DNA of 64,000 bases. Origin: an uncultured Blastocatellia bacterium (GTDB lineage Bacteria > Acidobacteriota > Blastocatellia > HR10). Positions 302 to 42,241 of this stretch are shown piece by piece. The position numbers were made by a program, and so were the translations under genes. The notes beneath the pieces were generated by a model that worked only from the letters and a program-made list of their open reading frames with translations, was not told the origin of the DNA and made no database searches. The stretch covers positions 58,023 to 122,022 of the forward strand of contig CALHAI010000004.1 in NCBI GenBank assembly GCA_937934295.1. The letters are read 5' to 3'. Numbering within the stretch: position 1 is the stretch's first letter; each line of letters starts with the position of its first letter.

Positions 302-1681
302 ATGGCTCCAATGCGTCGAGGGGATAGCAGGAGGTGCCGGCTCGTCGGGCTGGCGCTCCTTCTCGGAGGAGGCATCGGGTGGGCGTCTCAGCAACCGGCG
401 TGGCCCCCGGACCCTCCATTCCGCGAAGTGCAGGTGGAAACGCGCGTCGAGGAGTATGCGCGCCGATTGCGCACGCTCTATCGAACGGCGGAGAGCTTGG
501 CCAAGTTGGGGGACTTCGAGGAAGCGTTGCGCTATTACGATGAAGCCCTGCAGCTTCAACGTCAGCATCGGGATCGGCGCGGGATGAGCCTCACGCTCAT
601 GGCCATTGGCGACACCTATCTCTTCCGCATGGGGAAGCCCGAGCTCTCGCTCGAGGCGTATGCGCGGGCGCTGGAGCTGAAGCGCGAGATCAAGGATCGG
701 AAGGGAGAGCCCGAGGTGCTGCACCAAATGGCGTATGCCTACTATGTGATGGGGCGAACGGAGGAGGCCGAGCGCCTCTATCATCAGGTCCTCGAACTCT
801 CGCGCAAGGCGAAGAATCGGCGCGCCGAAGGCAATGCGTTGAACGGACTGGGGAATTGTCGGCTCGCACAGGGGCGGGCGCAGGAAGCGTTGGCGTTTTA
901 CGAGCAGGCGCTTCCGGTGCGGAAGAAGGCCAAGGACGGTCGCGGCGTCGCCAACACGACGTACAACATGGGCCGGGCTTACATGGCGCTCGGGCAGACG
1001 GAGCGTGCGATCGAGTACCTCACGAAGGCGCTCGCGCTGCGCCGCGAGCTGCTCGACGTGCAGGCCGAGGCCGAGACGCTGTTTGATTTGGCGCGCGCCT
1101 CCGCAGGGGAGAAACGTTTTGACGAAGCGGTGCGGCATTTTCAAGAGGCGGCACAGTTGGCGCACCGGACTCGGCGGCCACGCCTGGAAGTAATGGCATT
1201 GTATGCGGCTGGGGTGATCGAACTCGGTCGCGAGCGCGCGGAAGCGGCCATCGCGCTCTTGCGGCAAGCGCTCGAGCGCGTTCGCGGGAAGCCCGATTTT
1301 CGTCGAGAGCTGCGATTAATCTTGACGAGTCTCGGATCCGCGTACTTTCTGGCCGGGTGGTACGGCGAGGCCACGCGGATATATGGCGAGGGAGTGCGCG
1401 CGGCTCATGCCGATGGGGATCGCTTCTTGCTCGCCGAGTTGCTGTTGGGATTGGGGCAAGTGCAGGCGGCGCAGGCGAGCTACCGCCATGCCCTGGCCTG
1501 TTATTTCCAGGCGCAGCGCCTCTTGTCGGAAGCGCATTCCCCTCTGGCCCAAGCCATCGAGCGTCATGTGCGCGAGCTCCGTGAGCAGCTCGGCGAGGAA
1601 CGGTTCGCCGAGATCGCGGCTGAAGCCCGCGCGCACGGGGTGAGGCTTTTGCGCGAACTGACCGGCGTGGAGCTCTGGTGA
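302..1681 (+). CDS. secreted tetratricopeptide-repeat protein
   Basis: Signal-like N-terminus (LVGLALLLGGGIGWA) and many TPR units (AEGNALNGLGN, ALAFYEQAL, AIEYLTKAL). Confidence 0.85.
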   Translation: MAPMRRGDSRRCRLVGLALLLGGGIGWASQQPAWPPDPPFREVQVETRVEEYARRLRTLYRTAESLAKLGDFEEALRYYDEALQLQRQHRDRRGMSLTLMAIGDTYLFRMGKPELSLEAYARALELKREIKDRKGEPEVLHQMAYAYYVMGRTEEAERLYHQVLELSRKAKNRRAEGNALNGLGNCRLAQGRAQEALAFYEQALPVRKKAKDGRGVANTTYNMGRAYMALGQTERAIEYLTKALALRRELLDVQAEAETLFDLARASAGEKRFDEAVRHFQEAAQLAHRTRRPRLEVMALYAAGVIELGRERAEAAIALLRQALERVRGKPDFRRELRLILTSLGSAYFLAGWYGEATRIYGEGVRAAHADGDRFLLAELLLGLGQVQAAQASYRHALACYFQAQRLLSEAHSPLAQAIERHVRELREQLGEERFAEIAAEARAHGVRLLRELTGVELW

Positions 1682-32214: not shown

Positions 32215-32242
32215 TTGACTTCTCGGTTCACTGAGCTATAAT
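32215..32242 (+). promoter_or_regulatory. putative sigma70 promoter
   Basis: TTGACT-N16-TATAAT, followed by TAAGGAGG RBS. Confidence 0.6.
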
Positions 32243-39315: not shown

Positions 39316-40389
39316 CTATGAGGGCGTGAGAAGTGCGGCCAGATCCTCTCGTTGGCGGGCGGCGAGCTGCCCGCAAGCGGCGGCGATCTCCCGGCCTCGA
39401 GGTCGGCGGATGAATGTGGGAATGCCCGCCGCGCGCAAGATCTGTTGGAAGCGCGCGATGCGCGACTCCGGCGATGAGGCGAAGGGGAGCTCGGGGGCGG
39501 GATTGTATGGGATCACATTCACCTTCGCGCGAATTCCGCGCAGCAGCCGGATGAGCCGTCGCGCGTCCTCCTCGCCGTCGTTGATCCCCTCAAGCATCAC
39601 ATACTCGAAGGAGATCCACTCGTTCCTTCGGAGCGGATACGCGCGACAGGCAGCCAGCAGTTCCTCAAGGGGCCATCGCCGATTGATCGGCATGAGCTGA
39701 TCCCGAAGCGCGTTCGTCGTCGCCGCGAGCGAGATGGCCAGCTCCGGCCGAATAGGCTCTGTGGCGAGGCGGCGAATCCGCGGGACGACGCCGGCCGTCG
39801 AAAGCGTGATCCGCCGTTGGGAGATGTTCATCCCCCTTGAGTCGCAGAAGAGGCGGATCGCCTTCATCACGTTCTCATAGTTCAGAAGCGGCTCACCCAT
39901 CCCCATGAGGACGAGATTGAGTCCCCGCTTCGGCTTCGCCTCGGGGCCATAGAGGTCATTGAGGATGAGCCAGGCTTGGGCCACAATCTCGCCAGCCTCC
40001 AGGTTCCGCAGAAGGCCCAGGCGGGCCGTCATGCAGAATTGGCACGCCAGCGGACACCCAGCTTGCGTGGAGAGGCAGATCGTGTCGGCATACGGTTCAG
40101 GAATCCACACCGACTCGATTCGCACCCCATCTCTCAACCGCAGCAGATAACGCCGCGTCCCATCGCTCGCTTGGAAGACGTCGGCGACCTCCACATCGGT
40201 GATGACGTATTCGGCCGCGAGCGCCTCTCGCAAAGGGAGGGGAAGATCGGTCGCCGCCCGAAGGTCAACGATCCGCCGCCGGTGGAGTGCCTCAAAGAGC
40301 TGATGCGCGCGATACGGCTTTGGATCGCGTGCGCGCAGCAACTCTTTCAGCTCCTCTCGCGTCCGCCCAAGAAGCGCTTCTCGCATCAT
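39316..40389 (-). CDS. rlmN: 23S rRNA/tRNA adenine C2-methyltransferase RlmN
   Basis: CLSTQAGCPLACQFC, MGMGEP, AACGQL. Confidence 0.96.
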   Translation of the reverse strand: MMREALLGRTREELKELLRARDPKPYRAHQLFEALHRRRIVDLRAATDLPLPLREALAAEYVITDVEVADVFQASDGTRRYLLRLRDGVRIESVWIPEPYADTICLSTQAGCPLACQFCMTARLGLLRNLEAGEIVAQAWLILNDLYGPEAKPKRGLNLVLMGMGEPLLNYENVMKAIRLFCDSRGMNISQRRITLSTAGVVPRIRRLATEPIRPELAISLAATTNALRDQLMPINRRWPLEELLAACRAYPLRRNEWISFEYVMLEGINDGEEDARRLIRLLRGIRAKVNVIPYNPAPELPFASSPESRIARFQQILRAAGIPTFIRRPRGREIAAACGQLAARQREDLAALLTPS

Positions 40390-40500
40390 TTCGCATTATA
40401 GCGGCGGCTGGACGGATTCCCAAGACAAAGGGACACATCTATTGGCCGTGGCGATCTCGACCCCCGTTTTCGCGGACATCACGCGGGGTCAATTTTTCCC

Positions 40501-40529
40501 TTGACAATGTCGAGGACTATTTGTATACT
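40501..40529 (+). promoter_or_regulatory. near-consensus sigma70 promoter of the micropeptide pair
   Basis: TTGACA-N17-TATACT. Confidence 0.75.
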
Positions 40530-40570
40530 TTGAACCGATGCTGGATTTCGATCACATAAGGAGAGATGAT

Positions 40571-40681
40571 ATGCGCGAAAGAGGACAACTCGACATGGTG
40601 ACGCTCGTGCTGATCATGGCGTTTGTGATCCTGTTCCTGTTCATGTTCTTGCTGTTGGGAGGCGGAGGCGCAGGGTCATAA
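40571..40681 (+). CDS. 36-aa hydrophobic prepilin-like micropeptide A (MRERGQLDMVTLVLIMAFVILFLFMFLLLGGGGAGS)
   Basis: Hand-translated; TAAGGAG RBS, upstream promoter, paralog downstream. Confidence 0.8.
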   Translation: MRERGQLDMVTLVLIMAFVILFLFMFLLLGGGGAGS

Positions 40682-40709
40682 CTCGTTTCTTTGCCTGCGC
40701 GTCTCGAGA

Positions 40710-40754
40710 ATCCCCTGTGACGTCGTTCTGGCGAAGCACAGGGGATGTTTTTTT
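40710..40754 (+). terminator. intrinsic terminator
   Basis: ATCCCCTGTG/CACAGGGGAT perfect 10-bp stem followed by T7. Confidence 0.75.
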
Positions 40755-40789
40755 ATGGGTTTTATTGCTCCGTTCAGGGGGGGAGGGGT

Positions 40790-40891
40790 ATGCGCGAAAG
40801 GGGGCAAATTGATCCGATAATGCTCGTGTTGCTCCTGATGCTGGCGTTTTTCCTGATCATGATAGTTCTGTTGTTGCCGCGGCCAGCATAG
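40790..40891 (+). CDS. 33-aa hydrophobic prepilin-like micropeptide B (MRERGQIDPIMLVLLLMLAFFLIMIVLLLPRPA)
   Basis: Hand-translated; GGGAGG RBS; shares MRERGQxD with peptide A. Confidence 0.78.
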   Translation: MRERGQIDPIMLVLLLMLAFFLIMIVLLLPRPA

Positions 40892-41009
40892 GAGACGCAA
40901 CATCTGAGGATCCTTCACCGTCTGCTTCGTAAAATGGGAGCTCTCCTTAGTGTTGCTCCCTGCATGAGGGGGATTGCCTTTCCTGTTCGAGTCACGATAA
41001 GATGATTTC

Positions 41010-41642
41010 GTGCGCGTGATCGCAGGCCTGTATAAGGGGCGGCGCTTGAGGAGTCTCTCGGGAAAGGTCGTTCGGCCGACCCCCGATCGCTTGCGGGAAT
41101 CGCTCTTCAGTATCTTACGACCTCGGCTTACCGGAGCGCGGTTTCTCGATCTCTGCGCGGGGACAGGATCGGTGGGGATTGAAGCGCTCAGCCGTGGGGC
41201 GCATCGGGTCACGTTCGTCGAGCGCTCGCCCGCGGTCATCAGCGTACTCCGGCAGAATCTCGCCGCCTGTGGTATCTGCGACGGCATTGAGATTCTCCAG
41301 CAGGATGCCGTTCGCGCTCTGGAACGATTCAGCGAGCAAGGGGATGTCTTCGACGTGATCTTCTTCGACCCTCCGTATGCCTCGACGCTCTATGATTCCG
41401 TGCTCGAAGGCCTCGCGCGCAGGCCATGGGTGCTCGCGCCGGACGGGGTGCTTGTCGTCATGCATCATGCCAAGCGCGCTTTGGAACCCCGTTATGGGGA
41501 ATTGGAACGCGTGCGGCAGGTGCGACAGGGGGAGAACGTCTTGAGCTTCTACGTGCGTCGCCCTTTGCCGATGCCTGAGCGGTATGGCGAAGCGGAGGAG
41601 CAGGAGCTGGCGTTCGCCCTCGTGGGAAGCGCGGTGGAATGA
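41010..41642 (+). CDS. rsmD: 16S rRNA G966 methyltransferase
   Basis: MRVIAGLYKGRRL, RPTPDRLRESLF, LDLCAGTG, FFDPPY. Confidence 0.93.
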   Translation: MRVIAGLYKGRRLRSLSGKVVRPTPDRLRESLFSILRPRLTGARFLDLCAGTGSVGIEALSRGAHRVTFVERSPAVISVLRQNLAACGICDGIEILQQDAVRALERFSEQGDVFDVIFFDPPYASTLYDSVLEGLARRPWVLAPDGVLVVMHHAKRALEPRYGELERVRQVRQGENVLSFYVRRPLPMPERYGEAEEQELAFALVGSAVE

Positions 41643-41749
41643 GAGACGGCCACATACGATCTGGAGCCCTCGCCTTTCCAGAAGGACTGCTTTCACGAAG
41701 AGGGATGCCATATGAAGCCTTAAGAGCGGGGAGGGAGAAAGGAGGCGAT

Positions 41750-42241
41750 ATGCGAAGGCGGGTGACCATCGTCATCCTCGGTCTCATCCTTTGTGGGGCG
41801 GAGATGGGATTCGCGCAAGAGGCCCCACGAGTCGAGATTTTCACGGGCTATGCGTATGCGCGGTTGGCGGAAGCCGTCAACTCTCATGGGTGGAATTTTT
41901 CGATCGCCGGGAACGTGAATTCATGGTTCGGGATCGCCGCCGATGTGAGCGGTCATTATCGTTCGGATCTCTCGCTGTACACCTACACCATTGGTCCTCG
42001 CTTCTCCATGCGGAATACGGTCACGGCCTTCACGCACTTTTTGTTCGGCGGCGCGCGACTCGGAGATGGTGGCTCGCTCTCGGCGTTCGGGATGGTCTTG
42101 GGTGGAGGGTTCGACGTCCCCATTGGCGAGCGCTTCGCGCTCCGCTTGCTGCAGGCCGATTATCTCTTCACCCGGTTCGGTGGTGAGACGCAGAACAACG
42201 CGCGGCTGTCGGCGGGCCTTGTGTTCACCTTCGGGCGGTGA
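41750..42241 (+). CDS. outer-membrane beta-barrel protein (OmpA-like, 8-stranded)
   Basis: AAAGGAGG RBS, signal peptide, alternating beta strands, C-terminal aromatic residue. Confidence 0.8.
   Translation: MRRRVTIVILGLILCGAEMGFAQEAPRVEIFTGYAYARLAEAVNSHGWNFSIAGNVNSWFGIAADVSGHYRSDLSLYTYTIGPRFSMRNTVTAFTHFLFGGARLGDGGSLSAFGMVLGGGFDVPIGERFALRLLQADYLFTRFGGETQNNARLSAGLVFTFGR

Follow-up and report, generated by a model that had tools for sequence, protein, structure and literature searches.

Tandem single-helix peptides with a prepilin-like N-terminal motif in an uncultured Blastocatellia bacterium

The interval between rlmN and rsmD in a 64,000-nucleotide (nt) stretch of DNA from an uncultured Blastocatellia bacterium (contig CALHAI010000004.1 of assembly GCA_937934295.1, positions 58,023 to 122,022; the whole stretch is hereafter called the window) encodes, behind a near-consensus promoter, two tandem peptides of 36 and 33 residues. 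Judging from their conservation, both open reading frames (ORFs) are very probably real, translated genes, the products of which would span the membrane once with the N-terminus in the cytoplasm. The peptides belong to a family that, as far as the databases and literature searched go, is undescribed, and their N-termini match the prepilin signals of the host genome itself. That is, the leader is the one carried by the host's major type IVa pilin, and the residue following it is the one typical of its Tad-type substrates. We tentatively propose that this motif acts as a class III signal, that a PilD-type prepilin peptidase removes the leader after Gly5, and that the remaining helix acts in the membrane without being polymerised. 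In what follows, residues are counted from the proposed cut, Gly5 being −1 and Gln6 being +1.

The two peptide genes and their conservation

Both peptides start with a five-residue basic leader ending in Gly5, followed by Gln6, Asp8 and approximately 21 hydrophobic residues, with a Gly-rich tail in peptide 1 and a Pro-rich tail in peptide 2; neither contains Cys. The first six residues are identical in the two peptides, and the codons differ (AGA/AGG, GGA/GGG, GAC/GAT). An earlier description of the locus, drawn from the letters of the window alone (the sequence-only reading), had pointed out this common start with its synonymous differences, and had placed the promoter, the Shine–Dalgarno (SD) sites and the two ORFs exactly where we find them (Table 1). 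It had also taken the ORFs for real peptide genes, in agreement with their conservation in the genus and with the presence of family members in 12/12 genomes of the order. The elements that it listed are thus correct, but it overlooked the terminator-like hairpin that separates the ORFs, as well as two paralogues located elsewhere in the genome and the link of the family to a gene for an extracytoplasmic function (ECF) sigma factor.

The host genome (2.79 Mb, 94.5% complete) was compared with six other genomes of the genus. The gene order rlmN, peptide gene(s), rsmD is found in the host and in 6/6 genus-mates. ORF 1 is present in all seven genomes together with its SD and start codon, and the second ORF in six of the seven, being absent from one genome and leaderless in another. 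An upstream ATG at 40538 would open a longer frame of 47 codons, which in one genus-mate is thrown out of frame by a 1-nt insertion; therefore, the short 36-residue form is the conserved one. A word-based homologue search with the 47-residue ORF containing peptide 1 yielded no candidate.

Over the 29 ungapped codons of ORF 1 in the seven genomes, 13, 4 and 12 variable columns fall on codon positions 1, 2 and 3, respectively, and the pairwise codon differences comprise 113 synonymous and 80 non-synonymous changes. The 13/4/12 pattern is expected of a membrane helix selected for hydrophobicity, because T occupies codon position 2, and taken alone it would be modest evidence for coding. ORF 2 diverges faster: relative to its closest orthologue, 5 codons differ synonymously and 8 non-synonymously, and among three other orthologues the counts are 8 and 2, respectively. 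What argues most strongly for coding is that distant relatives keep the peptide motif, the SD and the start codon despite diverged DNA sequence and GC content. Furthermore, the members found in protein databases are ORFs called by gene callers in four public sources.

One genus-mate shows an unusual arrangement (G003:C32). Its second peptide gene (L015 1626-1712) has its own SD, lacks the leader and starts one residue past the proposed cut, and its first copy starts with GTG and has lost the tail.

A prepilin-type signal of the host's own flavour

The sequence-only reading had suggested looking for tad and type IV pilus genes elsewhere in the genome. They are present: the inventory comprises one Peptidase_A24 gene (PilD-type), three N_methyl pilins over the cut-off, including the major type IVa pilin, one Flp pilin and two adjacent TadE-like genes. 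The peptidase (G000:C19, L127 1382-2617) has 412 residues, with a Cys-rich N-terminal part and both Asp motifs, and a Peptidase_A24 match was found in 31/31 genomes of the class searched.

In the major type IVa pilin of the genome, the five leader residues are those of both peptides, with F-S-L-I-E coming next. Five genus-mates have either this pilin leader or one with a single extra or altered residue before ERG|F, such that (x)RERG or HERG precedes the F of their major pilins. Among the type IVa pilins examined the junction was G|F in 18/19, the remaining one, a weak hit below the cut-off, having G|Y. The Tad-type substrates follow another rule: the host's own Flp pilin has the junction E-K-G|Q and its TadE-like proteins have R-T-R-G|Q and R-E-R-G|Q, and in the host and five other genomes of the order G|Q was seen in 11/11 Flp and 19/23 TadE-like sequences (30/34 together). 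The peptides therefore combine the leader of the pilin with the +1 residue of the Tad substrates.

In an alignment of 33 members of the family, which does not include the leaderless copy of the genus-mate, Gly is invariant (33/33), as is Asp at +3 (33/33), and Gln is found in 32/33. The leaders have 4–9 residues and contain Arg or Lys in 32/33 members, the 33rd, with the GTG start, having the same leader after its start. As in Flp pilins, six polar or mixed residues, one of them acidic, precede the hydrophobic run, which starts at about +7 and is 15–22 residues long. Four elements of a class III signal are present in this region: a short basic leader, Gly at −1, the +1 residue typical of the lineage and approximately 20 hydrophobic residues. 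Gly at −1 is what prepilin peptidases need, and Glu at +5 serves assembly and methylation and is not known to be needed for cleavage; a peptide with the former and without the latter would be predicted to be cut without being polymerised. The leaderless copy described above would fit a leader that is removed anyway.

A number of observations weigh against this interpretation. Glu+5 occurs in 0/33 peptides, versus 30/30 of the G|Q Tad substrates of the order, and a role of Asp+3 in replacing Glu+5 or in permitting cleavage is putative. None of the peptides matched the Pfam models Flp_Fap, TadE and N_methyl, even at E-values up to 10. Profile comparison with hhalign aligned only the junction, over 4 columns with a probability of 1.5% for 11 Flp N-termini of the order and over 7 columns with a probability of 17.8% for the TadE-like N-termini. 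The likeness to pilins may therefore be convergent or trivial, since any helix with its N-terminus inside is expected to have a basic N-terminus and the homology ends at the junction. Moreover, different members of the family have different residues before Gly, one member has G-A in place of G-Q, and the leaders of the peptides do not co-vary with those of the major pilins outside the genus. No pil or tad genes lie near the window pair or near the locus of the paralogues, the range of the family is far narrower than that of Tad or type IV pili, and the leaderless copy may be decaying.

The number of peptide copies per genome has no clear relation to the number of TadE-like matches, and a complex prediction for the peptidase (alignment of 18) with the peptide family scored 0.12 against a mark of 0.32, which is evidence neither way. 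In a genome-wide scan for a helix preceded by G|Q or G|x, internal starts of large membrane proteins also passed; the pattern was thus not strict enough to gauge how specific the motif is, and nothing was drawn from it.

Taken together, the comparisons strengthen the prepilin interpretation of the peptides without proving it. The class III signal claimed by the sequence-only reading is backed by the leader of the host's own pilin, by the G|Q junctions of its Flp and TadE-like proteins and by the presence of one Peptidase_A24, and it failed the Glu+5 and profile tests; the absence of Glu+5, of a globular domain and of pilus genes nearby had been correctly stated from the outset. Because the family fails these tests it should not be filed as a member of Flp or TadE, though its function may still resemble that of the signal part of such a protein.

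The prepilin peptidase itself is long: the 412 residues seen in the genus compare with approximately 280–300 in several other genera of the class, and the two catalytic Asp regions are separated by the extra ~130 residues. Its gene is located ~1.4 kb away from the contig end.

An order-wide family linked to an ECF sigma factor gene

With a profile built from 18 peptides, 301 genomes of the class were searched, and every genome of the order proved to contain members (f1, 7/7; f2, 3/3; f3, 1/1; and the host itself). Outside the order, the same 301 genomes gave only three weak partial hits (E-values 0.007–0.008), which cover the helix region only, lie inside frames of 59–142 residues and were taken as chance. 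A profile of 33 peptides, searched against 401 genomes of the phylum, retrieved only the host, a second genome of the order and a stretch of 15 residues within a 347-residue frame. Among 1.84 billion representative proteins, 12 passed an E-value of 0.001, of which 11 are members of 32–41 residues and one is an unrelated 334-residue repeat protein. G-x-x-D is kept in 11/11 of these database members and Gln in 10/11; the only name they carry is 'hypothetical protein', and of 10 clusters looked up two were named at all. As far as searched, the family thus appears confined to one order of Acidobacteriota-like bacteria.

Pfam and NCBIfam models gave nothing over the cut-off for the two peptides and five relatives. 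Two matches at chance level were discarded, namely Rv3103c_Nterm (13 bits against a cut-off of 50) and the 'smalltalk' model (12.5 bits against 24.7), the single mention of a 'smalltalk protein' found in the literature being unrelated. Feature scores in a protein atlas did not exceed 0.85, which lies below a meaningful level, and the best-scoring clusters are unnamed. No description of the family was found in the literature on non-pilin substrates of prepilin peptidases, on ECF-linked small proteins in Acidobacteria or on Tad systems with ECF factors. The text on Acidobacteria in the ECF reclassification paper, as far as available, has no matching group, though its supplements may list one.

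The sequence-only reading had also proposed that further copies be sought genome-wide, and the profile search found two more in the host genome, outside the window (Table 1). These two paralogues have Cys in the tail and represent the common form: in most members a Leu/Ala-rich helix is followed by G-[ST]-G-x-C-P plus 1–6 residues. Otherwise the tails vary freely across the family, and in one orthologue the tail is missing. The Cys-tailed pair is present in every genus-mate, three copies are found in the sister genus, and a genome of another family has five in tandem (G008:C107, L035 1483-2180), each with its own SD. This five-copy array lies behind TTGACA-N17-TATACT and before the orthologous ECF sigma gene, in DNA much more A+T-rich than the window. 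In three genomes from outside the genus, rsmD is flanked by other genes and is not preceded by such an ORF. Since the rlmN–rsmD site is occupied only in the genus and Cys-tailed members occur order-wide, the window pair is a young, genus-specific offshoot, Cys-less and Phe-rich, of an older family.

In 11/12 genomes of the order, the Cys-tailed genes are immediately followed by an orthologous ECF sigma gene (52–95% identical), the exception being a 3.1-kb locus in a genome that is 78% complete. In three genomes the region beyond the sigma gene was inspected; no anti-sigma gene was found there, and the neighbouring gene is a convergent one that differs from genome to genome. The peptides themselves have only 5–9 residues before the membrane helix, and no ECF anti-sigma domain was matched in them by Pfam or NCBIfam. 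In the host, the segment that separates the sigma gene from the peptide gene nearest to it (L060 ~1230-1335, minus strand) contains an anti-SD-like block with CCTCCT, complementary to the SD of the sigma gene, followed by a hairpin with compensatory stem changes. Both elements are kept in the genus and in the sister genus and look like translational or attenuation control of the sigma gene. At the window locus, no ECF sigma gene was matched beside the peptide pair.

Upstream of the Cys-tailed pair of the host lies the divergent groES-groEL gene pair.

Proposed function and alternative explanations

Under the interpretation that we favour, the window peptides would sit in the inner membrane as single-pass proteins, the N-terminus facing the cytoplasm and a tiny tail protruding on the other side. 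The N-terminus, with its short basic leader, invariant Gly and Gln, would act as a class III signal of the local Tad flavour, and the single PilD-type peptidase of the genome would cut off the leader after Gly5. The resulting products of ~30 residues, consisting of little else than a helix and having Asp+3 instead of Glu+5, would stay out of fibres and, as pilin mimics in the membrane, would bind or load a partner, which could be the peptidase, the pilus platform or a sensor. The near-consensus promoter and the terminator-like hairpin after gene 1 suggest that much peptide 1 and less peptide 2 is made; gene 1 would be abundantly expressed, and gene 2 would depend on read-through of the hairpin. 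Taken from end to end, this chain of signal, cleavage and non-polymerising helix is possible, with a chance that we put a little below even.

Several known systems resemble parts of this scheme. Flp/Fap pilins (PF04964) share with the peptides a small size, a basic leader ending in Gly, the Gln+1 typical of the order, one acidic residue among the first six, and a single hydrophobic helix with no globular domain and a short Gly-containing segment after it. They differ in the length of the product (~45 residues, against ~28–31 predicted for the peptides) and in having a Glu+5/Tyr+6 pair where the peptides have Asp+3; moreover, the peptides are encoded outside a tad locus and the canonical flp gene lies separately in the genome. 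TadE/TadF-like pseudopilins (PF07811) share an Arg-rich leader followed by G|Q, and one of the two in the host genome has the same four residues, RERG, before Gln as the window peptides. They have 140–230 residues with a periplasmic domain and Glu+5, whereas the peptides lack both and end 3–10 residues after the helix. Archaeal pilins of the EppA type have a basic residue followed by Gly and Gln and are not known to need Glu+5, and they comprise at least 70 residues with a DUF361-type domain. Unlike in these, the residue before Gly is not conserved as Lys or Arg in the bacterial family.

A functional precedent comes from Caulobacter. There, as shown in a study of the Tad system (PMC7196804), the leader and the first 17 mature residues of the Tad pilin suffice to signal via the kinase PleC, and what is sensed is the pilin pool of the inner membrane. 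The CIP segment of PilA described there thus resembles the peptides in joining a pilin leader to a bare N-terminal helix and in signalling from the inner-membrane pool. However, CIP was made experimentally, by truncating a normal pilin or by synthesising part of it, whereas here the short forms would be encoded as such, in several paralogues, and would have a putative function and sensor partner. In Haloferax, too, pilins are reported to regulate motility (PMC10983859).

A more far-reaching version of our proposal is that the family represents dedicated 'signal-only' prepilins, processed by the peptidase and not polymerised, whose pool controls a sensor or the pilus machinery, and whose ancestral Cys-tailed form is wired to an ECF sigma factor lacking its own anti-sigma gene. 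We consider this extended version unlikely as it stands, but it would provide a new input route to ECF factors, and what CIP represents as an experimental peptide would have an equivalent in nature. If cut by PilD, the peptides would be the shortest natural class III substrates known to us and the first encoded as bare helices. The prepilin signal would then serve something besides the building of fibres or pseudopili, and the signalling by the pilin pool that experiments revealed in Caulobacter and Pseudomonas would have a natural parallel. Through the Cys-tailed relatives, pilin-like peptides would also be connected, in a way open to testing, with an ECF sigma factor that has no anti-sigma gene as its partner. 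Read more plainly, the locus adds a conserved small-protein family with strong expression signals, overlooked by standard annotation, in a poorly studied lineage.

The main rival explanation is that the peptides are not cut at all and are small membrane regulators, whose Gly-Gln-x-Asp face and helix bind another membrane partner; for the Cys-tailed paralogues this partner would perhaps belong to the ECF pathway, e.g. as a site-2 protease or as an anti-sigma factor whose gene lies at another site. Regulation of this kind is the commonest role of bacterial peptides of fewer than 50 residues, and it would agree with the position of the Cys-tailed genes before the ECF sigma gene in nearly all genomes of the order, with the missing anti-sigma gene and with the lack of pilin homology beyond the junction. 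However, it leaves unexplained why the invariant residues are those of the Tad junction and why the leader is that of the pilin. The window pair, moreover, has no sigma gene next to it, and a cytoplasmic part of 5–9 residues is too short for any known anti-sigma domain. We regard uncut regulators as a serious contender, only somewhat less probable than the interpretation that we favour.

It is improbable that the ORFs are cis-acting leader peptides that tune the downstream gene, rsmD here and the ECF sigma gene elsewhere, with no role in trans. Hairpins do follow the peptide genes, the anti-SD-like block and its compensating hairpin precede the SD of the sigma gene, and the tails are rich in Gly or Pro, all of which would suit such a function. 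On the other hand, conservation resides in the N-terminal motif and not in the freely varying tail, up to five tandem copies occur with an SD for each, rsmD goes without such peptides in the three genomes outside the genus, and the stop codons lie ~45–120 nt from the downstream structures.

True minimal pilins, cut and polymerised into a Tad-like or novel helix-only fibre, would account for the class III-like signal and for the high expression signals, and Flp pilins are themselves nearly helix-only. The helix-only fibre pilins envisaged by the sequence-only reading are nonetheless very unlikely, in view of the contrast in Glu+5 already given and of the absence of Tyr+6. Furthermore, there are no adjacent assembly genes, a canonical Flp gene exists elsewhere in the genome, and an almost wholly hydrophobic product of ~30 residues would give the fibre a greasy surface.

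Type I toxin-like membrane peptides checked by an antisense RNA, also considered in that reading, resemble the window pair in size, hydrophobicity and tandem copies, as known for hok, ldr and ibs-type toxins; more generally, Hok, Ldr and Ibs, as well as the small membrane proteins MgrB, AcrZ and KdpF, share with it the length, the single helix and tandem duplication. This explanation is highly doubtful. The near-consensus promoter and the strong, exposed SD, expression signals that would be constitutive, go with a 35-nt leader, the fold of which is not more stable than that of shuffled sequences (z −1.09). A consensus scan of the minus strand found no promoter-like site inside 40530-40900 and no antisense partner was found, though such a scan cannot exclude an RNA. 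The locus has no Rfam match and none to a small-protein model of Pfam or NCBIfam, its chromosomal position is fixed throughout the genus, and the relatives are co-transcribed with a sigma gene.

That the ORFs arose by chance in a conserved non-coding RNA or promoter region, as their shortness and the modest codon-position bias might suggest, is hardly credible given that members from the families of the order, though they differ in DNA sequence and GC content, retain the motif and in every case have both an SD and a start codon, that gene callers of four public sources report such ORFs, and that no Rfam family covers the region.

A few candidate identities were discarded on simpler grounds. 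A lipoprotein signal does not apply to the window peptides, which have no Cys, and in one Cys-tailed subfamily Gln precedes the Cys, which does not fit a lipobox. Substrates of rhomboid or signal peptidase I would have the wrong orientation or give products of 3–4 residues, light-harvesting-type peptides would require His, which is missing, and arrest peptides are not compatible with a tail that is not conserved.

Expression signals and surroundings of the locus

The features of the locus, and of the related locus outside the window, are given in Table 1.

Table 1. Coordinates of the peptide genes, their expression signals and associated genes
Feature	Position	Strand	Remarks
A/T-rich tract, possible UP element	40491-40497	+	Directly 5′ of −35; ATTTTT-like block kept in 7-genome alignment
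Sigma-70-type promoter TTGACA-N17-TATACT	40501-40529	+	−35 at 40501-40506, −10 at 40524-40529; 11/12 consensus matches
Short 5′ leader	40536-40570	+	~35 nt from inferred start; SD AAGGAG at 40558-40563
Peptide gene 1, 36 residues	40571-40681	+	ATG at 40571, 7 nt after SD AAGGAG; profile E-value 3e-18
Intrinsic-terminator-like hairpin and T-run	40711-40754	+	Stem 40711-40719/40737-40745; seven T at 40748-40754
G-rich SD region of peptide gene 2	40777-40788	+	Purine-rich SD kept before second ORF in genus-mates
Peptide gene 2, 33 residues	40790-40891	+	ATG at 40790
rlmN (divergent)	39316-40389	−	TIGR00048, 375 bits
rsmD	41010-41642	+	TIGR00095, 161 bits; 119 nt downstream
Two Cys-tailed paralogues, 36 and 32 residues	C4:249668-249922 (L060 1339-1593)	−	Behind TTGACT-N17-TATACT; outside window
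ECF sigma gene after Cys-tailed pair	L060 663-1223	−	No anti-sigma gene after it

A promoter scan of an 801-nt region detected 3 promoter-like sites versus 0.5 expected from shuffled sequences, and in an alignment of the rlmN–rsmD intergenic regions both hexamers of the peptide promoter are unchanged in 7/7 genomes of the genus. Sites of the form TTGAC[AT]-N16-18-TATA[AC]T are rare, with only 18 in the entire host genome, 2 of which precede the peptide loci of the family. Among the other genes preceded by such a site are groES, by our reading a tRNA gene, and probably an rRNA operon. The A/T-rich tract upstream of the promoter may function as an UP element. Transcription would start at about 40536, as placed from the −10 position, and the leader block and SD of gene 1 are kept across the genus. 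A scan of 40300-41100 with Rfam, at E-values up to 1, returned 0 matches.

The hairpin between the two ORFs is GC-rich and present in both the minimum free energy and the centroid folds. Its stem is kept in 6/7 genomes of the genus and its T-run in only 2 of them. The hairpin (40711-40745) is missing from the output of the terminator scan, which has a loop limit of 8.

Some minor observations concern the leader and the surroundings of the pair. The first ~20 nt of the leader (40536-40557) are more strongly conserved in the genus than an unstructured leader needs, and this segment has neither an Rfam match nor a significant fold. Further upstream of rlmN lies mpl, and further downstream of rsmD a gamma carbonic anhydrase-like gene. 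After rsmD there is an ORF of 164 residues (41747-42238) that has no NCBIfam match at an E-value of 1e-5 and belongs to a longer frame open from 41639. Finally, another near-consensus promoter, TTGACT-N16-TATAAT, occurs in the window at ~32215-32242 (G000:C4:90237), where it is followed by AAGGAGG and an ORF with a signal-peptide-like start.

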